A DNA stretch of 64,000 nt from Escherichia coli (GCF_003334405.1 NZ_QOWM01000001.1), one strand, 5' to 3'; counted from the stretch's first letter, positions 3,763 to 17,185 are shown. The notes: generated from the letters alone by a model not told the origin. A program made the numbers and translations.

Positions 3763-6243
3763 ATGTTGAGAATGACCCCACTTGCATCAGCAATCGTAGC
3801 GTTATTGCTCGGCATTGAAGCTTATGCAGCTGAAGAAACCTTTGATACCCATTTTATGATAGGTGGAATGAAAGACCAGCAGGTTGCAAATATTCGTCTT
3901 GATGATAATCAACCCTTGCCGGGGCAGTATGACATCGATATTTATGTCAATAAGCAATGGCGCGGGAAATATGAGATCATTGTTAAAGACAACCCGCAAG
4001 AAACATGTTTATCAAGAGAAGTTATCAAGCGGTTAGGCATTAATAGCGATAACTTCGCCAGTGGTAAGCAATGTTTAACATTTGAGCAACTTGTTCAGGG
4101 TGGGAGCTATAGCTGGGATATCGGGGTTTTTCGTCTCGATTTCAGTGTCCCGCAGGCTTGGGTGGAAGAACTGGAAAGTGGCTATGTTCCACCGGAAAAC
4201 TGGGAGCGGGGTATTAATGCGTTTTATACCTCTTATTATGTGAGTCAGTATTACAGCGACTATAAAGCGTCGGGTAATAACAAGAGTACATATGTACGTT
4301 TTAACAGCGGGTTAAATTTACTGGGGTGGCAACTGCATTCTGATGCCAGTTTCAGTAAAACAAATAACAATCCAGGGGTGTGGAAAAGCAATACCCTGTA
4401 TCTGGAACGTGGATTTGCCCAACTTCTCGGCACGCTTCGCGTGGGTGATATGTACACATCAAGCGATATTTTTGATTCTGTTCGCTTCAGCGGTGTGCGG
4501 TTGTTTCGTGATATGCAGATGTTGCCTAACTCGAAACAAAATTTTACGCCACGGGTGCAGGGGATTGCTCAGAGTAACGCGCTGGTAACTATTGAACAGA
4601 ATGGTTTTGTCGTTTATCAGAAAGAGGTTCCTCCTGGCCCGTTTGCGATTACAGATTTGCAGTTGGCCGGTGGTGGAGCAGATCTTGATGTCAGCGTGAA
4701 AGAGGCGGACGGCTCGGTTACCACCTATCTGGTACCTTATGCAGCGGTGCCAAATATGCTGCAACCCGGCGTATCGAAATATGATTTTGCGGCGGGTCGT
4801 AGCCATATTGAAGGGGCGAGCAAACAAAGTGATTTTGTCCAGGCGGGTTATCAGTATGGTTTTAATAATTTATTGACGCTGTATGGTGGCTCGATGGTCG
4901 CGAATAATTATTACGCGTTCACTTTGGGGACTGGCTGGAATACCCGCATTGGTGCCATTTCCGTCGATGCCACGAAGTCGCATAGTAAACAAGACAACGG
5001 CGATGTGTTTGACGGGCAAAGTTATCAAATTGCCTACAACAAATTTGTGAGCCAAACGTCGACGCGTTTTGGTCTGGCGGCCTGGCGTTATTTGTCGCGT
5101 GATTACCGGACATTTAACGATCACGTTTGGGCAAACAATAAAGATAATTATCGCCGTGATAAAAACGATATCTATGACATTGCCGATTATTACCAGAACG
5201 ATTTTGGCCGTAAAAATAGCTTTTCTGCCAATATGAGCCAGTCATTGCCAGAAGGCTGGGGGTCTGTGTCCTTAAGTACGTTATGGCGAGATTACTGGGG
5301 GCGTAGCGGCAGCAGTAAGGATTATCAGTTGAGTTATTCCAATAACTGGCGGCGGATAAGCTATACCCTCGCGGCAAGCCAGGCGTATGACGAGAATCAT
5401 CATGAAGAGAAACGTTTTAATATTTTTATATCGATTCCCTTTGATTGGGGTGATGACGTTACGACGCCTCGTCGGCAAATATATATGTCTAACTCAACGA
5501 CGTTTGATGATCAGGGGGTTGCCTCAAATAATACGGGATTATCAGGAACCGTTGGAAGCCGGGATCAGTTTAACTATGGGGTCAACCTGAGTTATCAGCA
5601 TCAGGAAAATGAAACGACAGCTGGGGCGAATTTGACCTGGAACGCGCCGGTTGCGACAGTGAATGGCAGTTATAGTCAGTCGAGTACTTATCGACAGGCT
5701 GGAGCCAGTGTTTCAGGGGGCATTGTCGCCTGGTCGGGTGGCGTTAATCTGGCGAACCGTCTTTCCGAAACGTTTGCTGTGATGAATGCGCCAGGAATTA
5801 AAGATGCTTATGTCAATGGGCAAAAATATCGCACAACAAACCGTAATGGAGTGGTGATATACGACGGAATGACACCTTATCGGGAAAATCACCTGATGCT
5901 GGATGTGTCGCAAAGCGATAGCGAAGCAGAATTACGTGGCAACCGGAAAATTGCCGCACCTTATCGCGGCGCGGTTGTACTGGTTAATTTTGATACCGAT
6001 CAGCGCAAGCCCTGGTTTATAAAAGCGTTAAGAGCGGATGGTCAACCATTAATGTTTGGTTATGAAGTCAATGATATCCATGGTCATAATATTGGCGTTG
6101 TCGGCCAGGGAAGCCAGTTATTTATTCGCACCAATGAAGTACCGCCATCGGTTAATGTGGCAATTGATAAGCAACAAGGACTTTCATGCACAATCACCTT
6201 CGGTAAAGAGATTGATGAAAGTAGAAATTATATTTGCCAGTAA
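3763..6243 (+). CDS. yehB: fimbrial outer-membrane usher
   Basis: ORF 3748..6243 (831 aa); start probably MLRMTPLASA... at 3763; size and composition typical of PapC/FimD ushers. Confidence 0.9.
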   Translation: MLRMTPLASAIVALLLGIEAYAAEETFDTHFMIGGMKDQQVANIRLDDNQPLPGQYDIDIYVNKQWRGKYEIIVKDNPQETCLSREVIKRLGINSDNFASGKQCLTFEQLVQGGSYSWDIGVFRLDFSVPQAWVEELESGYVPPENWERGINAFYTSYYVSQYYSDYKASGNNKSTYVRFNSGLNLLGWQLHSDASFSKTNNNPGVWKSNTLYLERGFAQLLGTLRVGDMYTSSDIFDSVRFSGVRLFRDMQMLPNSKQNFTPRVQGIAQSNALVTIEQNGFVVYQKEVPPGPFAITDLQLAGGGADLDVSVKEADGSVTTYLVPYAAVPNMLQPGVSKYDFAAGRSHIEGASKQSDFVQAGYQYGFNNLLTLYGGSMVANNYYAFTLGTGWNTRIGAISVDATKSHSKQDNGDVFDGQSYQIAYNKFVSQTSTRFGLAAWRYLSRDYRTFNDHVWANNKDNYRRDKNDIYDIADYYQNDFGRKNSFSANMSQSLPEGWGSVSLSTLWRDYWGRSGSSKDYQLSYSNNWRRISYTLAASQAYDENHHEEKRFNIFISIPFDWGDDVTTPRRQIYMSNSTTFDDQGVASNNTGLSGTVGSRDQFNYGVNLSYQHQENETTAGANLTWNAPVATVNGSYSQSSTYRQAGASVSGGIVAWSGGVNLANRLSETFAVMNAPGIKDAYVNGQKYRTTNRNGVVIYDGMTPYRENHLMLDVSQSDSEAELRGNRKIAAPYRGAVVLVNFDTDQRKPWFIKALRADGQPLMFGYEVNDIHGHNIGVVGQGSQLFIRTNEVPPSVNVAIDKQQGLSCTITFGKEIDESRNYICQ

Positions 6244-6258
6244 TAGTCAGGTGGTTCT

Positions 6259-7293
6259 ATGGAAATTCGCATAATGCAATTTATATTAATGATGATGGTT
6301 ATGCCTGTGAGCTATGCGGCATGTTATAGTGAGTTATCTGTTCAGCACAACTTGGTTGTTCAGGGGGATTTTGCACTTACTCAAACACAAATGGCGACAT
6401 ATGAGCATACTTTTAATGATTCGTCATGCGTGAGTACAAATACTATCACCCCTATGAGCCCGTCGGATATTATTGTTGGACTTTATAACGATACCATAAA
6501 ATTAAATTTACATTTTGAATGGACCAATAAAAACAACATCACGTTGTCAAATAATCAGACCAGTTTCACCAGTGGTTATTCAGTTACGGTGACACCTGCG
6601 GCCAGTAATGCAAAAGTGAATGTTTCTGCGGGGGGCGGCGGTTCAGTGATGATTAATGGTGTTGCGACATTATCCAGTGCTTCATCATCGACACGCGGGA
6701 GTGCCGCAGTACAATTTCTACTGTGTTTATTAGGTGGCAAGTCATGGGATGCATGTGTAAATAACTACAGAAATGCATTGGCACAAAATGCAGGTGTCTA
6801 TTCCTTTAATCTGACATTGTCATACAACCCGATAACCACAACCTGCAAACCGGACGATTTATTAATTACTTTAGACAGCATTCCCGTTTCACAATTACCA
6901 GCCACAGGTAACAAAGCAACAATAAATAGTAAACAAGGGGATATTATTCTGCGTTGTAAAAGTTTATTAGGTCAACAAAATCAAACATCACGGAAAATGC
7001 AGGTGTATTTATCAAGTTCTGACTTGTTAACCAACAGCAACACAATACTGAAAGGTGCGGAAGATAATGGCGTAGGATTTATTCTTGAAAGTAATGGTTC
7101 GCCAGTCACACTTTTAAATATCACTAACAGCAGTAAAGGATACACAAATTTAAAAGAAATTGCGGCAAAGTCAAAACTTACAGATACAACGGTTTCAATT
7201 CCGATAACAGCCAGTTACTACGTCTACGATACAAACAAAGTTAAATCTGGCGCACTGGAGGCAACCGCATTAATCAACGTGAAATACGACTAA
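6259..7293 (+). CDS. yehA: fimbrial adhesin-like subunit
   Basis: 344 aa, signal peptide, two-domain size typical of tip adhesins; last gene of the operon. Confidence 0.85.
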   Translation: MEIRIMQFILMMMVMPVSYAACYSELSVQHNLVVQGDFALTQTQMATYEHTFNDSSCVSTNTITPMSPSDIIVGLYNDTIKLNLHFEWTNKNNITLSNNQTSFTSGYSVTVTPAASNAKVNVSAGGGGSVMINGVATLSSASSSTRGSAAVQFLLCLLGGKSWDACVNNYRNALAQNAGVYSFNLTLSYNPITTTCKPDDLLITLDSIPVSQLPATGNKATINSKQGDIILRCKSLLGQQNQTSRKMQVYLSSSDLLTNSNTILKGAEDNGVGFILESNGSPVTLLNITNSSKGYTNLKEIAAKSKLTDTTVSIPITASYYVYDTNKVKSGALEATALINVKYD

Positions 7294-7349
7294 TAACAAG
7301 CAAGACGAGCAAGTGGCTAATAATAAAAAATAACAAGGTGTCTGCATTT

Positions 7350-7377
7350 CCCCCTCATGATGAGGGGGCTTTTTTTA
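7350..7377 (+). terminator. Rho-independent terminator after yehA
   Basis: Hairpin ccccctca-tga-tgaggggg followed by seven T; the T-run overlaps the rcnB stop codon on the opposite strand. Confidence 0.75.
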
Positions 7378-7713
7378 GCGATGATAAAAAATCTCACCGT
7401 CGTAGGCTTTAATGATTTTACCGTCGGTGTCGCTGATCAACACGTACGCGCCACCCATATAGGTCCAGTGCGTCCCGGCATCAGGCGCGGGCAGGTTACG
7501 CAACTGCCACTGCTTAATGTTGTACTCATCGGTACGGTACATTTCTGGTACGGTGTCCCCTGGTTTGAAATGCTTAAAGTCAGCAATGAAACTACTTAAC
7601 TCATACTTAGAAATTCCCGAGGTATTGGTCGAACCCGCGGTGGCTGGTGCGGCCCAGGCGGCACTGGTAACCAGCAAAAGCGCACCCAGTAACATCTTAT
7701 TTTTAATGGTCAT
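7375..7713 (-). CDS. rcnB: periplasmic protein RcnB (nickel/cobalt homeostasis)
   Basis: ORF 7375..7938 but product matches RcnB from internal Met (MTIKNKMLLGALLLVTSAAWA..., 112 aa); signal peptide. Confidence 0.88.
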   Translation of the reverse strand: MTIKNKMLLGALLLVTSAAWAAPATAGSTNTSGISKYELSSFIADFKHFKPGDTVPEMYRTDEYNIKQWQLRNLPAPDAGTHWTYMGGAYVLISDTDGKIIKAYDGEIFYHR

Positions 7714-7934
7714 AAACTCTCCACTTTGGGGATCTGTAATATCAGTCGCATATCTTTCCTGCCATACAATATAACTGACAAGCGATATTTTGTTAGTGAT
7801 CCCATGATTTCGTAAAAAGTGTAAATGAAAGGATGCCCTAAAAGCATCCTTAGCGAGCAGAGAGTCAGCGGAAATAGCTGATTTAAGAATCATCCTGGGC
7901 TGAAGATAACATGCAAGCCTAAAGGATTGAGTTA

Positions 7935-8780
7935 TCACATTATGCCCATGAAGCCATGTACGCCCATATACACACCGACTAAGCCAATCAACAGACTGGA
8001 AAAATAGGGGGCGCGTTTAGCGAGAGTGTTAAATCCGCTCCAGCGTTTTGCGACCTGCTGAACGCTGATTGCTGCGCCAACGCCTACGGTGACAAGCGTA
8101 AACGCCAGGCCAATGCTGAAACTGACGACCAGTGTTGCGCCCAGTGTCAGGGCTTTCAACTGAATGCATATCAATAGCACGGTAATTGCTGCCGGGCAGG
8201 GGATAAGGCCACCGGTTAAGCCAAATAACAAAATTTGCCAGTTGGTGACCTCTCTACCATCAAAGCGTCGTTTAATGTCATTGGCATGGGCTCGTGCATG
8301 GGCATCCTGATACTCGCCATGTTCGTGATGGTGATGATGTCCATGGTCGTGGTGATGTTCGTGGTCTTGATGATGTTCGTGATCGTGATGATGGTGATGA
8401 TGCTCATAATCATACTCGTGCATATTCTCCAGCCAGTTGCGTTCGCCGCGCCAGGTACGCCAGAACATCCAGAACGCGGTGCCAATAATGATCACTGCGG
8501 AAATCAGCTGGAGCCACGGTTCTGCTGATTGAGCAGTAAAGCGCTTGCTGATCACCATCCCGCCAAAGGCAATTAACCAGACCACTGCGGTATGCGAAAT
8601 AGTTGCTGCCAGTCCGAGCATCACCGCTTGTTTAATGGTGCCTTTGATGGCGATGATAAACGCCGCCATCATCGTTTTTGAGTGCCCTGGTTCCAGGCCA
8701 TGAAGCGCACCAAGTAAGATGGCGCTGGGGATGAAGAACCAGGCGTTTCCTTGCTGAAGAAGAGTTGTAAATTCGGTCAT
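7935..8780 (-). CDS. rcnA: nickel/cobalt efflux transporter RcnA with His-rich loop
   Basis: 281 aa; MTEFTTLLQQGNAWFFIPSAILLGALHGLEPGHSK...; central loop HEYDYEHHHHHHDHEHHQDHEHHHDHGHHHHHEHGE. Confidence 0.95.
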   Translation of the reverse strand: MTEFTTLLQQGNAWFFIPSAILLGALHGLEPGHSKTMMAAFIIAIKGTIKQAVMLGLAATISHTAVVWLIAFGGMVISKRFTAQSAEPWLQLISAVIIIGTAFWMFWRTWRGERNWLENMHEYDYEHHHHHHDHEHHQDHEHHHDHGHHHHHEHGEYQDAHARAHANDIKRRFDGREVTNWQILLFGLTGGLIPCPAAITVLLICIQLKALTLGATLVVSFSIGLAFTLVTVGVGAAISVQQVAKRWSGFNTLAKRAPYFSSLLIGLVGVYMGVHGFMGIM

Positions 8781-10981: not shown

Positions 10982-11045
10982 GCACCGTACTATAGCTGCT
11001 TTGGTTATTGTCAGCCTTTGGCACTGACATTCAGGGATGAAACCA

Positions 11046-11864
11046 ATGCAGCTGAGAATCACCAGTCGAAAAAAATTCACCGCTTTATTATGCGCTCTTG
11101 GGCTAATTTCCATCGTTGCAATTTGTCCACGTCAGACGGTGAATTTTTTCTATTCGACAGCAGTTCAGATTAAAGACTACATCCACTTCTACGGTTATCG
11201 CCCGGTTAAATCTTTCGCTATTCGCATTCCTGCCAGTTACACCATTCACGGAATAGATGTTTCGCGCTGGCAGGAGCGGATCGACTGGCAGCGGGTGGCA
11301 AAAATGCGCGACAACGGTATCCGCTTACAGTTTGCTTTTATTAAGGCGACGGAAGGCGAAAAGCTGGTGGACCCCTATTTTTCGCGTAACTGGCAACTAA
11401 GCCGCGAAAATGGCCTGCTGCGCGGGGCGTATCATTATTTCTCCCCGTCGGTAGCAGCGCCTGTTCAGGCGCGATTATTTCTGCAAACGGTGGATTTCTC
11501 ACAAGGCGATTTCCCTGCCGTGCTGGACGTAGAAGAACGGGGAAAATTATCGGCAAAAGAATTACGCAAGAGGGTAAGTCAGTGGCTAAAAATGGTCGAA
11601 AAAAGTACGGGGAAAAAGCCGATTATTTACTCAGGAGCCGTTTTTTATCACACGAATCTGGCGGGCTATTTCAATGAATATCCGTGGTGGGTGGCTCACT
11701 ACTATCAACGTCGTCCGGACAATGACGGCATGTCCTGGCGCTTCTGGCAGCATTCCGACCGTGGACAGGTAGATGGCATCAATGGTCCGGTGGATTTTAA
11801 TGTGTTTAATGGCACGGTGGAGGAGTTGCAGGCATTCGTTGATGGGATTAAAGAAACGCCTTAA
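11046..11864 (+). CDS. yegX: glycoside hydrolase family 25 (lysozyme/muramidase-like) protein
   Basis: ORF 11037..11864; GIDVSRWQERIDWQRV...FAFIKATEG motifs typical of GH25; N-terminal hydrophobic segment. Confidence 0.85.
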   Translation: MQLRITSRKKFTALLCALGLISIVAICPRQTVNFFYSTAVQIKDYIHFYGYRPVKSFAIRIPASYTIHGIDVSRWQERIDWQRVAKMRDNGIRLQFAFIKATEGEKLVDPYFSRNWQLSRENGLLRGAYHYFSPSVAAPVQARLFLQTVDFSQGDFPAVLDVEERGKLSAKELRKRVSQWLKMVEKSTGKKPIIYSGAVFYHTNLAGYFNEYPWWVAHYYQRRPDNDGMSWRFWQHSDRGQVDGINGPVDFNVFNGTVEELQAFVDGIKETP

Positions 11865-11915
11865 ATAAGAAGCAGTGATATACTCCCACCAGACTCCCTG
11901 GCAGGAAAAAGACAA

Positions 11916-12662
11916 ATGGAACAAGCGCATACCCAGCTGATTGCCCAACTGAACGAGCGTATTTTAGCGGCGGATAACACGCCGCTTTATATTAAGTTTG
12001 CCGAAACGGTAAAAAATGCCGTGCGCAGCGGGGTGCTGGAGCATGGCAATATTTTGCCCGGTGAGCGTGATTTAAGTCAGTTAACCGGCGTTTCGCGCAT
12101 TACGGTGCGCAAGGCGATGCAGGCGCTGGAAGAAGAGGGCGTGGTGACGCGTTCGCGTGGTTACGGCACGCAGATCAACAACATCTTCGAATACTCGTTG
12201 AAAGAAGCGCGAGGTTTTTCTCAGCAGGTGGTATTGCGCGGGAAAAAGCCCGATACGCTATGGGTTAACAAGCGTGTCGTGAAATGTCCCGAAGAAGTCG
12301 CGCAGCAGCTGGCGGTCGAAGCGGGAAGTGATGTCTTTTTGCTTAAGCGTATTCGCTATGTCGATGAAGAAGCGGTATCGATTGAGGAATCGTGGGTTCC
12401 GGCGCATTTAATTCATGATGTTGATGCCATCGGGATTTCACTTTATGACTATTTCCGCAGCCAGCACATTTACCCACAACGTACGCGTTCCCGCGTTAGC
12501 GCCCGGATGCCGGATGCCGAGTTTCAGTCACATATTCAGTTAGATAGCAAAATACCGGTGCTGGTGATCAAGCAAGTGGCGCTTGACCAACAGCAACGGC
12601 CTATTGAGTACAGCATTAGCCACTGTCGCAGCGATCTATACGTTTTTGTGTGCGAGGAGTAG
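11916..12662 (+). CDS. yegW: GntR/HutC-family transcriptional regulator
   Basis: 248 aa; N-terminal winged HTH (LPGERDLSQLTGVSRITVRKAMQALEEEGVV) plus C-terminal effector domain. Confidence 0.88.
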   Translation: MEQAHTQLIAQLNERILAADNTPLYIKFAETVKNAVRSGVLEHGNILPGERDLSQLTGVSRITVRKAMQALEEEGVVTRSRGYGTQINNIFEYSLKEARGFSQQVVLRGKKPDTLWVNKRVVKCPEEVAQQLAVEAGSDVFLLKRIRYVDEEAVSIEESWVPAHLIHDVDAIGISLYDYFRSQHIYPQRTRSRVSARMPDAEFQSHIQLDSKIPVLVIKQVALDQQQRPIEYSISHCRSDLYVFVCEE

Positions 12663-13601
12663 TTCCTCGCGCGTTGGCGCACAATCACCGCCCCGATGCC
12701 CGACAACCCACGACGCCACTGCATTGCCCAGTAATACGGCATCCGCCAGTGGCAGACCAGAGGCCAGCCCGGCAAGTACGCCACCGGCATGACTGTCGCC
12801 CGCCCCAATGGTGTCGACAACTTGCGTTGGAAATGCCGGAATGCAGCCAGAAGCGTCGTTGCTGAAATACCATGCGCCTTCTTTATCGAGACGAACGATC
12901 AACGGCGCGGCAAATTTCTCCTGCCATTGCTTGCCAAGTGTTGTTATCTCTGCGGATAAAGCAAAACGTTCGGCGGCAATCTCAGCCTCTTGACGATTGA
13001 GCGACACTAAAGGTCGACAGGCCATGATCCGCGCCAGTAATGCATCCGGGATATCGCCAATACGTGGGCCAAAATCGATAAACGGCGTCACGTCTTGCAG
13101 CTCTTCCAGCCATTCCACTAACAATTCGCCGCAGGGCGAGGCCAGTTGATAACCGGAAAAATAGAGCAGGCTGCCAGGCGCAACGGTTAATCGCGCCAGC
13201 CACTGGCGATTCCACTGATTTTCCACACCGCTGAATGACATAAAAGTGCGTTCGCCATCCGGCTCAACCAGCGCCAGACACCAGCCGTTATCACCTTCGG
13301 CGTTATCGATCAGGCTGATTAAGCCCTCTTTTGCCATCCGGTTGCGAATAATCTCCGCCCACACGCCCTGACCGAGCGGCAAGGCATTACCCGCTTCGAT
13401 GCCGAGGCGCTTTAACGCCACGGCAATATTCAGTGCGCAGCCGCCAACGTTAACGCTCTGCTGTTTCAGTTCGATATCGCACCCACGCCAGGGGAGGGCA
13501 TAAGCGTCGGCGATCACGTCAATGACCGCCGCGCCGACGACCATCACCGGCTGACGCGTGGTTAATTCAGGCAGCAGCGTGTGTAATCGAGCGCCGCTCA
13601 T
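12636..13601 (-). CDS. yegV: PfkB-family sugar/nucleoside kinase
   Basis: 321 aa; C-terminal DTIGAGDSHAGG motif of the ribokinase/PfkB family; 3' end overlaps yegW by 27 nt. Confidence 0.85.
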   Translation of the reverse strand: MSGARLHTLLPELTTRQPVMVVGAAVIDVIADAYALPWRGCDIELKQQSVNVGGCALNIAVALKRLGIEAGNALPLGQGVWAEIIRNRMAKEGLISLIDNAEGDNGWCLALVEPDGERTFMSFSGVENQWNRQWLARLTVAPGSLLYFSGYQLASPCGELLVEWLEELQDVTPFIDFGPRIGDIPDALLARIMACRPLVSLNRQEAEIAAERFALSAEITTLGKQWQEKFAAPLIVRLDKEGAWYFSNDASGCIPAFPTQVVDTIGAGDSHAGGVLAGLASGLPLADAVLLGNAVASWVVGHRGGDCAPTREELLLAHKNV

Positions 13602-14602
13602 ACCGCCTCCCGTTGTTGACGATATTTCGCCAGCGCTGTGGCATAGCGGTTGAAATCAAGCTGATTTACCGCATCCAGTTCCGCCTTTAACGCAGGATCG
13701 ATAGCGTTAACGCCATGCAACGCGCCGCAAATTGCCGTCGCCATAGCACCGATGGTGTCTGTGTCGCCGCCAAGGTTAGCGCACAGGACGGCGCAGCGAT
13801 TCGGGTCGGTTTGTGCCAGTTCAACCAGCGCAATGGCGCACGGAACGGACTCAATAGTGCTGGTACCTGCGCCAACGACCTGGTAAAGCTGTTCGCTGGC
13901 GGATTCGGTGCCGTCGGCATTGCGCACAATTTTCAGCGCAATCTCCAGCCGCGCCGCCAGTGAGGCGCTGAACGTAGTGATGCGTTTTTGCTGTGCATGT
14001 CGCGCAATTGAAGGCAGGGAATCAACAATCGCTGACCAGCTTTCTCCGTCAATGGCACGAGAAATCGCCCATGCGATGACTACCGCGCCTGCAACCGCCA
14101 GATCGGATTTATGGGTCGGGCTGGACGCCAGCGCTACATCATCAATAAAGGAATCAACATCACGCGCCGGAAGCAAACAACCTAATGGCGAGACGCGCAT
14201 CGCTGCGCCGTTGGTCACGCCGTTGTTTTCCAGTTCAGCAACGGGTTTACCGTCGCGAATGGCGTTAAGCGCAATCTTCGAGGTCGGACCTAGTACGTTT
14301 TTGTTAAAGGCGTCGAAACGCAGCGCCCAGTCGAGAATATTACGCCCAATCAGATCCGGATCGATCTTGCCTTCACGTTCCAGTAACGCATCCGCCAGAC
14401 ACAGCGCCATCGAGGTATCGTCGGTGAATTCGGCGCGGTTAAAATAACAGGCCGCGTTATTCTCCTTTGGTCCAGGAAGAAAACGGTCAATCCAGCCAAA
14501 GTGTGCTTTAACGCGGCTGCGTGGCCAAAGCTCGGAGGGCATCCCCATCGCATCCCCTAACGCCTGCCCATAAAGAGCACCGAGAATACGTTCTGTTTTC
14601 AT
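13598..14602 (-). CDS. yegU: ADP-ribosylglycohydrolase-family protein
   Basis: 334 aa; N-terminal GALYGQALGDAMGMPSE typical of the ADP-ribosylglycohydrolase fold. Confidence 0.85.
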   Translation of the reverse strand: MKTERILGALYGQALGDAMGMPSELWPRSRVKAHFGWIDRFLPGPKENNAACYFNRAEFTDDTSMALCLADALLEREGKIDPDLIGRNILDWALRFDAFNKNVLGPTSKIALNAIRDGKPVAELENNGVTNGAAMRVSPLGCLLPARDVDSFIDDVALASSPTHKSDLAVAGAVVIAWAISRAIDGESWSAIVDSLPSIARHAQQKRITTFSASLAARLEIALKIVRNADGTESASEQLYQVVGAGTSTIESVPCAIALVELAQTDPNRCAVLCANLGGDTDTIGAMATAICGALHGVNAIDPALKAELDAVNQLDFNRYATALAKYRQQREAV

Positions 14603-15876
14603 TTAACTTCCCCTTGTGTCAACGCAATATCGCGATCATCGACCTTGATAGCCGTAATTTCGTTGTCGGATTCGCGGAAAAAAATCATGAACAGCACGGC
14701 GATAATGGCAATCATCACCGCGCCGAAAGTCCACATCCCGGACCAGTTGAAAGTCAGTCCGTTTACCGGTTCCTGATAAGCGAACATCTTTTCCATCATC
14801 ACACCGCCAAGACGATAGCCGAGCAAACTGCCGAAGCCCTGGCAGCAGAGCGTGATCAGCCCCTGCGCAGCGGTACGCATATGCACGGGGGCTTTTTTAT
14901 CGACATAGATGTAAGCGGTAACGTAGTAAAAATCGTAACTTACGCCGTGAAGCAAAATACCGAGGAACAGTAACGCGTAGGTGAAATATTCATCCGCACT
15001 ACCGTAAATAAAGAAGCCATAGCGGATCGCAGCGGTGACCAGACCAAGCAATAATACCTTTTTGATACCAAAGCGTTTAGTGAAAAACGGCAATGCCAGC
15101 ATAAAGAAGATTTCAGAGAACTGGCCGAGCGTCATCCAGCCGGTGGCGTTTTTCATGCCAACTTCGGTCAGATAACCGTTGGCAAAGATGTAATAGAACG
15201 CCAGTGGCATCGCAAACAGGAATGAACAGAAGAAAAAGACGAGGAAGTTTTTATCGCGCAGCAGGATCAGCGCATCCAGGCCGAGCATGACTTTAATATC
15301 CATTTTGCCGGTGCTTTTTGGTGGCGTGTCGGGCAGGAAAAACGCAAACACACCGAGCAGAGCAGAACTTCCGGCGGTAATCAGCAGCGGGATGTTAGTC
15401 GGTGAGATATCGGCATACCCCAGTATTTGCGGCAAGAAACCACATGCCAGACCGGAGGCAATCCAGCCGATAGTGCCCATCACACGAATGCGCGGGAAAT
15501 CACGCTCAACATCCGGCACGTTGGCAAAAGCGATGCTGTTAGTCAGCGCAATGGTCGGCATATAGGTTAGCGAGTAGGCCAGCAGTAACGGGAAGAACCC
15601 GGCAAAAGTGGTCTGTTGCGCAGCGAAATACATCAGCAGCGCGCCTGCGAACATCAATACCGCCAGCACTTTCTGCGCCGAGAAAAAGCGGTCAGTGATG
15701 GAGCCAACCAGAATTGGCGACAGGATCGCCGCAATGGCGGTACAGGCATACGACCAGCCAATTTCTCCGGCACTAAAACCGCTTTTACTTAACCATAACC
15801 ACAATGGCACAAACCACGCGCCCCAGATAAACCATTCAACAAACATCATGAACGACAGCTTTGCTGTTGTTTTCAT
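14599..15876 (-). CDS. yegT: MFS nucleoside:H+ symporter-family transporter
   Basis: 425 aa, about 12 predicted TM segments, NupG/XapB-like. Confidence 0.85.
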   Translation of the reverse strand: MKTTAKLSFMMFVEWFIWGAWFVPLWLWLSKSGFSAGEIGWSYACTAIAAILSPILVGSITDRFFSAQKVLAVLMFAGALLMYFAAQQTTFAGFFPLLLAYSLTYMPTIALTNSIAFANVPDVERDFPRIRVMGTIGWIASGLACGFLPQILGYADISPTNIPLLITAGSSALLGVFAFFLPDTPPKSTGKMDIKVMLGLDALILLRDKNFLVFFFCSFLFAMPLAFYYIFANGYLTEVGMKNATGWMTLGQFSEIFFMLALPFFTKRFGIKKVLLLGLVTAAIRYGFFIYGSADEYFTYALLFLGILLHGVSYDFYYVTAYIYVDKKAPVHMRTAAQGLITLCCQGFGSLLGYRLGGVMMEKMFAYQEPVNGLTFNWSGMWTFGAVMIAIIAVLFMIFFRESDNEITAIKVDDRDIALTQGEVK

Positions 15877-16132
15877 CTTTTAATTCCTTCATGACAGGTA
15901 ATGTAAGGTACGCGATGACAATACCACTTAATAATACCTTTTAAATACCTTTGCGGTGAAAACTTGACCGCGCTAACATTTTTTCTGATGAATCGAGCCA
16001 ACAGAAAACGCTGAAAAAACATCCAAAAGATGGAAAAACTCGCCCGTAACGACCAGGATTATGATTGCCCGCAAAAGGCGGGCCAGGAAAATCCATAGCC
16101 GATATCCAATCGGAATTTACGGGAGCATAGTA

Positions 16133-17185
16133 ATGACAGATATTGCGCAGTTGCTTGGCAAAGACGCCGACAACCTTTTACAGCACCGTTGTATGACTAT
16201 TCCTTCTGACCAGCTTTATCTCCCCGGACATGACTACGTAGACCGCGTGATGATTGACAATAATCGCCCGCCTGCGGTGTTACGTAATATGCAGACGTTG
16301 TACAACACCGGGCGTCTGGCTGGCACAGGATATCTTTCTATTCTGCCGGTTGACCAGGGCGTTGAGCACTCTGCCGGAGCTTCATTTGCTGCTAACCCGC
16401 TCTACTTTGACCCGAAAAACATTGTTGAACTGGCGATCGAAGCGGGCTGTAACTGTGTGGCGTCAACTTACGGCGTGCTGGCGTCGGTATCGCGGCGTTA
16501 TGCGCATCGCATTCCATTCCTCGTCAAACTTAATCACAACGAGACGCTAAGTTACCCGAATACCTACGATCAAACGCTGTATGCCAGCGTGGAGCAGGCG
16601 TTCAACATGGGCGCGGTTGCGGTTGGTGCGACTATCTATTTTGGCTCGGAAGAGTCACGTCGCCAGATTGAAGAAATTTCTGCGGCTTTTGAACGTGCGC
16701 ACGAGCTGGGCATGGTGACAGTGCTGTGGGCCTATTTGCGTAACTCCGCCTTTAAGAAAGATGGCGTTGATTACCATGTTTCCGCCGACCTGACTGGTCA
16801 GGCGAACCATCTGGCGGCGACCATTGGCGCGGACATCGTCAAACAGAAAATGGCGGAAAATAACGGCGGTTATAAAGCGATTAATTACGGTTATACCGAC
16901 GATCGCGTGTACAGCAAGTTAACCAGCGAAAACCCGATTGATCTGGTGCGTTATCAGTTAGCTAACTGCTATATGGGCCGGGCTGGGTTGATAAACTCCG
17001 GCGGTGCTGCAGGCGGTGAAACTGACCTCAGTGATGCAGTGCGTACTGCGGTTATCAACAAACGCGCTGGCGGAATGGGGCTGATTCTTGGACGTAAGGC
17101 GTTCAAGAAATCGATGGCTGACGGCGTGAAACTGATTAACGCCGTGCAGGACGTTTATCTCGATAGCAAAATTACTATTGCCTGA
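16133..17185 (+). CDS. fbaB: fructose-bisphosphate aldolase class I
   Basis: ORF 16061..17185; product starts [60 protein letters not shown]... Confidence 0.93.

Follow-up and report, generated by a model that had tools for sequence, protein, structure and literature searches.

The yegTUV operon of Escherichia coli: a GgaR-repressed transporter, glycohydrolase and kinase set that may act on a non-canonical riboside

Enzymes of the ADP-ribosylglycohydrolase family such as ARH1, ARH3, DraG and Tri1 share a fold, a catalytic glutamate and a set of ligands for two metals, and act on ADP-ribosylated proteins or ADP-ribose derivatives; to our knowledge, all substrates characterised for this group have C5 of the cleaved ribose esterified with phosphate. 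A nucleoside-type transporter, a PfkB kinase and an enzyme that cleaves a glycosidic bond are combined in the small catabolic cluster psuT-psuG-psuK (yeiM-yeiN-yeiC) of Escherichia coli, where the kinase forms the 5'-monophosphate of pseudouridine and the glycosidase then yields ribose-5-phosphate and the base. In Salmonella, the PfkB aminoimidazole-riboside kinase STM4066 is silenced by the adjacent GntR-type repressor STM4068. Repressors of the HutC subfamily that control a single operon (FarR/MngR, NagR, PhnF, TreR) consist of a GntR winged helix-turn-helix domain and a UTRA effector domain. This report compares with these systems the yegTUV operon of E. coli and its regulatory gene yegW (ggaR), which lie in a stretch of 64,000 nucleotides (GCF_003334405.1, NZ_QOWM01000001.1; hereafter, the window).

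Few core E. coli operons still lack assigned biochemistry; yegTUV is among them, despite a characterised regulator and a transporter crystal structure. The locus and its regulation are already known from published work, including repression, two regulator-binding regions, a single mRNA, an effect of ADP-glucose on regulator binding and calorimetry on the transporter. We propose, at a probability of roughly 45%, that yegTUV is a GgaR-repressed operon that serves to import a non-canonical riboside-type compound and to degrade it inside the cell, and that the adjacent gene yegX is unrelated to it; the unit to study would be the glycohydrolase, the kinase and the transporter, minus yegX. Action of an ARH-fold enzyme on a small riboside phosphate, if it is real, would give a fold best known from ADP-ribosylation signalling a new role, in nutrition or salvage.

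The operon comprises yegT (14599-15876), yegU (13598-14602) and yegV (12636-13601), all on the minus strand, which encode an NHS-family proton symporter of the MFS type, an ARH-fold (ADP-ribosylglycohydrolase family) metal-dependent glycohydrolase and a PfkB-family kinase, respectively. Its repressor gene yegW (11916-12662) lies convergently on the plus strand. Both the yegT/yegU and the yegU/yegV junctions are ATGA stop/start overlaps preceded by Shine-Dalgarno-like purine runs, so the three genes are expected to be translationally coupled. For a 100%-identical E. coli record, RefSeq lists the same five genes (yegX included) and products; the segment is 100% identical in several E. coli chromosomes, and the locus is held by 5425 of 5426 complete E. 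coli genomes, that is, it belongs to the core genome. A first-pass annotation made from the DNA alone had given these five genes over the span 11046-15876, in agreement with the list of open reading frames (ORFs) and with RefSeq, and all of its family calls were upheld by profile searches (GH25, GntR plus UTRA, PfkB, ADP_ribosyl_GH and nucleoside permease), which keep YegU and YegV in the families stated there. Its description of yegTUV as a three-gene operon with overlapping stops and starts likewise holds, on the strength of the two ATGA junctions and of a published single mRNA of 3.3 kb (PMC10819704).

Profile searches place a GntR domain (PF00392, 7e-16) at residues 29-87 of YegW and a UTRA domain (PF07702, 3.5e-36) at residues 108-242. 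The protein was characterised in 2024 and renamed GgaR, a repressor that has yegTUV as its single target and responds to ADP-glucose in vitro (PMC10819704); the first-pass annotation was right to place yegTUV under this neighbouring HutC-type regulator and wrong to call the regulator an orphan. Chromatin immunoprecipitation on microarrays (ChIP-chip) gave one genomic peak made up of two sub-sites, the first in the fbaB/yegT spacer and the second inside yegT, and in electrophoretic mobility shift assays (EMSA) GgaR bound probe-2 (covering the 190 bp upstream of yegT) and probe-5 (nt 571-869 of the yegT ORF) (PMC10819704). The 3.3-kb yegTUV mRNA was seen on Northern blots in the ggaR knockout only, with a derepression of about 30-fold, and GgaR abundance was about 20-30 molecules per cell throughout (PMC10819704).

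One line of evidence for a dedicated pathway is the distribution of these genes. Neighbours were mapped by tblastn in 80 loci with YegU relatives, one genome per species. The order yegT-yegU-yegV with a convergent yegW is kept in Escherichia, Citrobacter, Enterobacter, Raoultella, Cedecea, Buttiauxella, Atlantibacter and Mangrovibacter as well as in Erwinia, Pantoea, Budvicia, Brenneria, Rahnella, Hafnia and Gilliamella, and the yegTUV set is also present, with a co-directional yegW, in Vibrio and Photobacterium. Among representatives of 50%-identity clusters, 234 YegU relatives were found at E <= 1e-30. Sampled full-length relatives of 40-57% identity adjoin a PfkB kinase and a transporter of the NCS1 type (PF02133) in Photobacterium damselae, where a divergent GntR/UTRA regulator is also present, and in an Actinomycetaceae metagenome-assembled genome, Lentilactobacillus raoultii, Pediococcus stilesii and further contigs; two of these loci also have an adjacent gene for a PNP_UDP_1 nucleoside phosphorylase. 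Domain fusions account for 11 of the 150 top representatives (four ARH-PfkB, e.g., Arsenicicoccus piscis, and seven PfkB-ARH), and one fusion gene comes after ECF transporter components. The glycohydrolase-kinase pair is thus a cross-phylum, often fused unit (Proteobacteria, Lactobacillales, Actinomycetota), an observation that is new here. Since the transporter is replaceable (NHS or NCS1) while the hydrolase-kinase pair is constant, YegU and YegV almost certainly work on successive intermediates. The recurrent hydrolase-transporter-kinase sets and the fusions in both orders strengthen the logic of uptake, phosphorylation and glycosidic cleavage that had been put forward for E. coli from sequence. 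With slightly less than an even chance, in our estimate, the ARH-fold YegU and YegV represent a broad, uncharacterised two-enzyme pathway that acts on a small-molecule riboside or riboside 5'-phosphate and not on macromolecules.

Several of these loci carry additional genes. In Vibrionaceae (L068-L074; e.g., L069 9038-10273, 11194-11865) a transporter gene of the L-lactate/oxalate:formate MFS type lies between yegV and yegW, and a YeiL-like regulator gene comes after yegW. Distant loci with the enzyme pair include an isochorismatase-family gene (L091, 1555-2136), ECF T and A components (L092, 1424-3840) and a TENA_THI-4 gene (L095, 10365-11192). Each of these three was met a single time, so as hints at the aglycone they are possible but unconfirmed. 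The extra neighbours of the distant loci (isochorismatase, PNP_UDP_1, ECF and TENA_THI-4) were each met once or twice and point to no shared aglycone. An E. coli-like arrangement is not found everywhere, and yegU occurs without adjacent yegT or yegV in Edwardsiella and Serratia marcescens (L079, L085 and L086, each with a convergent yegW-like gene beside yegU) and in Brenneria (L076 and L078).

YegU matches ADP_ribosyl_GH (PF03747) at 2.5e-66 and retains all the residues that align with the catalytic glutamate and the metal ligands of ARH3 (E24 in GMPSE, T60-D61-D62, D280, D282 and T283). Its AlphaFold2 model (predicted local distance difference test score, pLDDT, 96.9) has MJ1187 (1t5j), ARH3 and DraG as top fold matches, MJ1187 being the closest solved structure. 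Fold, catalytic glutamate and two-metal ligand set are therefore those of ARH1, ARH3, DraG and Tri1; unlike these enzymes of ADP-ribosylated proteins and ADP-ribose derivatives, YegU lies in a distinct clade that is operonic or fused with a PfkB kinase and accompanied by small-molecule transporters. A sequence search of the PDB and a fold search with the model returned only MJ1187, a Thermus ARH-related protein, ARH3, DraG and Tri1, none of which has a small-molecule riboside function, so the structure of YegU gives no clue to its substrate. The protein also matches the PHROG family phrog_6572 (ADP-ribosylglycohydrolase) over its full length at 5e-100, which places close relatives of YegU in a phage/prophage protein collection. 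A defence-system origin was considered and dropped, as a PADLOC search gave no match.

YegV has a full-length PfkB domain (PF00294, 2.9e-56) and carries the C-terminal DTxGAGD signature as VVDTIGAGDSHAGG. Its best NCBIfam model is ribokinase TIGR02152, at 82.1 bits (4e-23) against a cut-off of 299.65; PRK11142 gives 59.7 against 341, and YegV reaches 19 bits against a cut-off of 540 with the PsuK equivalog NF007355. YegV, YegU and YegW all remain under the cut-offs of the NCBIfam equivalogs, which give no specific assignment. The best PDB matches of YegV are ribokinases at 1e-15 to 1e-13; no structures of the STM4066 type were among its matches at E <= 1e-10. Like STM4066, whose substrate is a non-canonical riboside, YegV is a PfkB kinase encoded next to a GntR-family repressor; unlike YegV, STM4066 has no ARH partner. 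The resemblance to the psu cluster is also one of logic, with a nucleoside-type transporter, a PfkB kinase and a glycosidic-bond cleaver in both; unlike YegU, PsuG has an indigoidine synthase A-like fold, and the psu transporter is of the NupC and not the NHS type.

YegT matches nucleoside permease TIGR00889 with 654.9 bits against a cut-off of 446.1, and its sequence is that of PDB entry 8ZOJ except for an engineered K267A. The crystal structure published in 2025 has the NHS-family fold with a GxxxD protonation site in transmembrane helix 10, and by isothermal titration calorimetry (ITC) no binding of uridine, adenosine, cytidine or guanosine was detected (PMC11979927). Like the NHS symporters NupG and XapB, YegT has this MFS fold of 12 transmembrane helices (root-mean-square deviation of 1.57 A to NupG) and the GxxxD site; in our alignment R136, T140, Q261, E264 and D323 of NupG are kept as R131, T135, Q252, E255 and D315. 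Unlike in NupG, the uridine-contacting residues are not conserved (PMC11979927), F143, Q225, N228, Y318 and F322 of NupG corresponding to W138, A226, Y229, H310 and Y314. Taken with the negative ITC result, the kept and exchanged residues suggest that YegT probably handles a riboside whose aglycone is unusual. This published biochemistry (PMC11979927) points away from a transporter confined to canonical nucleosides and fits the modified nucleoside that the first-pass annotation had offered as a possible substrate.

These elements can be assembled into a working model. GgaR, bound to a candidate operator over the spacer and -10 element of the yegT promoter and to a second copy about 880 bp downstream, would repress the operon about 30-fold until an inducer frees it; the physiological inducer may be a nucleotide-like intermediate related to ADP-glucose. 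YegT would bring the substrate in together with a proton, YegV would phosphorylate it, most likely at the ribose 5'-OH, and the two-metal site of YegU would cut the ribosyl C1 bond to give ribose-5-phosphate and the aglycone, as in the psuT-psuK-psuG pathway. The repressor gene would be transcribed from its own promoter, and its 3' end shares 27 nt with yegV so that the two transcripts would overlap. Both the nature of the substrate and the order of the two enzymes are what we infer from these comparisons. The order kinase before hydrolase is favoured because the substrates of ARH enzymes carry a C5 phosphoester, E. coli already possesses a ribokinase, and YegV falls far below the ribokinase cut-off.

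A number of points weigh against this proposal. Literature searches found no demonstrated substrate for YegT, YegU or YegV, and YegV is still listed as an uncharacterised sugar kinase in a 2025 survey. The sole effector found active so far, ADP-glucose, is not a riboside, and the published phenotype of the ggaR knockout (higher glycogen, slow growth) is not obviously due to riboside catabolism. Neither a kinase nor a transporter gene adjoins yegU in Serratia, Edwardsiella and some Brenneria. On the regulatory side, the GgaR operator described below is a prediction from motif statistics and conservation only, and the codon-bias test applied to its intragenic copy ignores phylogeny. Two further points concern the order of the reactions: the strongest full-length profile and PDB matches of YegV are ribokinases, and both synteny and fusions fit either order equally. 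They are at the same time what speaks for a scheme in which YegU would cleave an unphosphorylated riboside and the ribokinase-like YegV would phosphorylate the ribose or other sugar released. This reverse order is considered unlikely, although it deserves to be kept in view: 82 bits against a cut-off of 299.65 is a poor score for a ribokinase, characterised ARH enzymes act on ribose that bears a 5-phosphoester, and E. coli already has RbsK and the RihABC hydrolases.

The authors of the GgaR study connected the operon with glycogen, which leads to a different explanation, namely that YegTUV import, make or spare ADP-glucose or a precursor of it, so that glycogen rises on derepression, and that ADP-glucose is the true inducer. 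ADP-glucose at 10-100 uM freed GgaR in EMSA, and glucose and ADP, the sole other compounds tried, did not; moreover, the ggaR knockout contained 2-3 times more glycogen and grew more slowly on glucose minimal medium (PMC10819704). A yegV knockout also figures in a list of low-glycogen mutants, and uptake of ADP-glucose is reported for the paralog NupG. In other respects GgaR behaves like the remaining HutC-subfamily repressors, its gene adjoining the single target operon and a pathway-related phosphorylated metabolite releasing the protein (PMC10819704); unlike theirs, its reported effector is ADP-glucose. However, the effector evidence consists of one EMSA with three compounds and an indirect phenotype, no known enzymatic step connects either the hydrolase family (ARH) or the kinase family (PfkB) with the synthesis of ADP-glucose, and hydrolysis of ADP-glucose would cut glycogen, not increase it. 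The same gene set occurs with a nucleobase/nucleoside-type NCS1 transporter in Lactobacillales and Actinomycetota, and the change in glycogen could be indirect, through a perturbation of nucleotides or ribose-5-phosphate. An ADP-glucose function is, on balance, quite improbable. Under the riboside proposal, the identity of the substrate would explain the link between GgaR, ADP-glucose and glycogen and might account for the glycogen phenotype.

It is very improbable that YegU is a macromolecular de-ADP-ribosylase of the DraG, ARH1/3 or Tri1 kind with incidental neighbours. The ARH fold, the intact catalytic site and the closeness of ARH3 and DraG among characterised structures would suit such a role, but YegU scores far below the cut-offs of the DraG (79.5 bits against 337) and Tri1 (69 against 490) models, is coupled to, and elsewhere fused with, a sugar/nucleoside kinase, and sits with small-molecule transporters; no defence-system or toxin partner was found, and no ADP-ribosyltransferase gene occurs among the annotated neighbours. 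A five-gene module in which the muramidase YegX frees or processes a cell-wall glycoside that YegTUV then import and degrade has next to no credibility, for yegX, although physically adjacent in E. coli, upstream of yegW and in the same orientation, is missing elsewhere, has its nearest relatives outside Escherichia and Shigella in Sphingobacteriia, is near neither the operator motif nor a GgaR peak, and has its own constitutive promoter (details below).

No recognition sequence for GgaR is given in the study that mapped its binding (PMC10819704), and a concrete candidate operator for yegTUV regulation is now at hand. The 64-kb window contains exactly two matches to the motif GGTATYN5GGTATTAT, where 0.03 would be expected. 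Both lie on the yegT strand, one at 15931-15949 (within the published probe-2) and the other at 15051-15069 (within the published probe-5). The first belongs to a candidate primary operator, O1 (15920-15949, minus strand), with three GGTATT direct repeats (15949-15944, 15938-15933 and 15925-15920) spaced 11 and 13 bp. A consensus scan identified a putative sigma-70-like yegT promoter at 15931-15960 on the same strand (-35 TTCACC at 15960-15955, a spacer of 18 nt and -10 TATTAT at 15936-15931), whose spacer and -10 element are overlapped by the first two repeats; O1 would thus act as the primary operator by occluding the promoter. The second match, O2 (GGTATCAAAAAGGTATTAT; 15051-15069, minus strand), corresponds to nt 808-826 of the yegT ORF and may be an auxiliary operator about 880 bp downstream that works by looping or as a roadblock.

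Conservation agrees with this assignment. The relaxed motif GGTAYY-N5-GGTAYTAY is present with 0 mismatches 64-107 nt upstream of yegT in nearly all loci of the sample, which runs from Escherichia to Vibrio. Serratia, Edwardsiella and Brenneria roseae have no yegT at the locus and carry the motif upstream of yegU instead. The peptide FGIKKVLL encoded at O2 is conserved, and its synonymous codons are biased to those that spell the motif (GGT 69% against 23% in the background, AAG 83% against 27%, GTA 54% against 15% and TTA 48% against 8%, statistics that ignore kinship). The relaxed motif is proposed here for the first time as the candidate GgaR operator and matches both published binding regions. 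Direct-repeat operators of a TGTATTA type, similar to GGTATTA, are known for FarR; unlike the operators of the other HutC-subfamily repressors, the GgaR candidate is a direct-repeat pair 11 bp apart with an intragenic auxiliary copy about 880 bp away. An inverted-repeat model, GGTAT-N11-RTACC, was rejected, being no better than chance in the window and not matching the promoter.

Some further occurrences of such sequences were recorded. At 4210-4230 of the window, GGTATTAATGCGTTTTATACC forms an exact inverted repeat of 5-bp arms (GGTAT/ATACC) over an 11-bp spacer, which is unrelated to the yegT promoter. Among the loci where yegU lacks adjacent yegT and yegV, the GGTAY direct-repeat motif lies upstream of yegU in L076, L079, L085 and L086 and not in L078. 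In Buttiauxella izardii (L049, 235 and 4798) the upstream operator is duplicated and a further copy lies upstream of yegW. In Budvicia (L063, 6458-6476; L067, about 5329) the operator-like GGTAGTATAATGGTATTAC overlaps a perfect TATAAT just upstream of yegW, which suggests that yegW is autoregulated in this genus, a feature that E. coli lacks.

In E. coli, yegW is probably transcribed from a promoter of its own. A candidate extended -10 element, TGaTATACT, can be read at 11876-11884 on the plus strand, at the point where synteny breaks in other Escherichia (see below), and TATACT is kept at the matching place 5' of yegW in Citrobacter, where thiD comes before; the two observations together make it probable that yegW has retained this promoter.

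The 3' ends of yegW and yegV overlap by exactly 27 nt on opposite strands (12636-12662), as had been noted at the outset, with the yegW stop TAG at 12660-12662 and the yegV stop at 12636-12638 on the minus strand. Of 49 close Enterobacteriaceae loci, 47 share exactly this length, as does a Pectobacterium polonicum contig. The overlap is shorter in Erwinia, Pantoea and Izhakiella (14 nt) and in Tatumella (4 nt); a gap takes its place in Rahnella, Budvicia, Brenneria, Gilliamella and Hafnia. This deep conservation of the 27-nt overlap is a new observation, and the fixed length may simply be a dual-coding constraint. A sequence scan found no terminator-like hairpin downstream of either stop codon and, as the coding sequences themselves overlap, the yegV and yegW transcripts must do so too. 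Accordingly, ExcludonFinder, which draws on RNA sequencing, counts the pair yegV-yegW as one of the 165 convergent excludons in the core excludome of MG1655, in line with the antisense overlap predicted earlier. The constant level of GgaR suggests that interference is not strong while yegTUV is repressed.

The remaining gene, yegX (11046-11864, plus strand; the ORF list also allows a start at 11037), encodes a GH25 muramidase-like protein with an N-terminal hydrophobic anchor that matches PF01183 at 4e-54 over model positions 1-180 of 180, as well as PHROG endolysin families; a literature search found no paper characterising it. The first-pass annotation had counted it as a part of the module, a view abandoned here: yegX is an unrelated, Escherichia-specific insertion beside yegTUV, and its exclusion from the module is new. 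It lies beside yegW only in E. coli among the 80 loci; none of the 77 loci from outside Escherichia has it at this place, nor do two further Escherichia loci. In other Enterobacteriaceae yegW follows thiD by about 40-50 bp, and one contig each of E. albertii and Escherichia sp. loses its homology to the window at about 11875, right after yegX. Beyond Escherichia and Shigella the best matches of YegX are in Sphingobacteriia (Solitalea, Pedobacter and Anseongella; 45-56% identity), and the shortening to 160-240 aa of many Shigella and some E. coli copies would fit a gene that was acquired horizontally and is decaying. No operator motif was found near yegX in the scan of the 64-kb window, and the sole ChIP-chip peak of GgaR in E. 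coli is at fbaB/yegT, with none at yegX (PMC10819704). A published RpoD study by systematic evolution of ligands by exponential enrichment (SELEX) maps a constitutive promoter to the spacer between thiD and yegX. An origin of yegX from a coliphage endolysin was discarded, phage matches being below 46% identity and mostly to phages of Gram-positive hosts.

In the RefSeq record the locus is flanked by thiM-thiD upstream and by fbaB and gatYZABCD downstream. The adjacency to thiMD is not retained outside Enterobacteriaceae and is treated as coincidental. By the annotation of the 100%-identical UMNF18 record, a prophage fragment lies beside thiM at about 5046-8205 of the window, comprising a head-tail connector, a frameshifted HNH endonuclease, a frameshifted P27-family small terminase, a large terminase and hypothetical genes. 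On the other side, the fbaB ORF (16061-17185) has 24 additional codons ahead of the start annotated at 16133, and this extension falls within the fbaB/yegT spacer that also carries a GgaR site.

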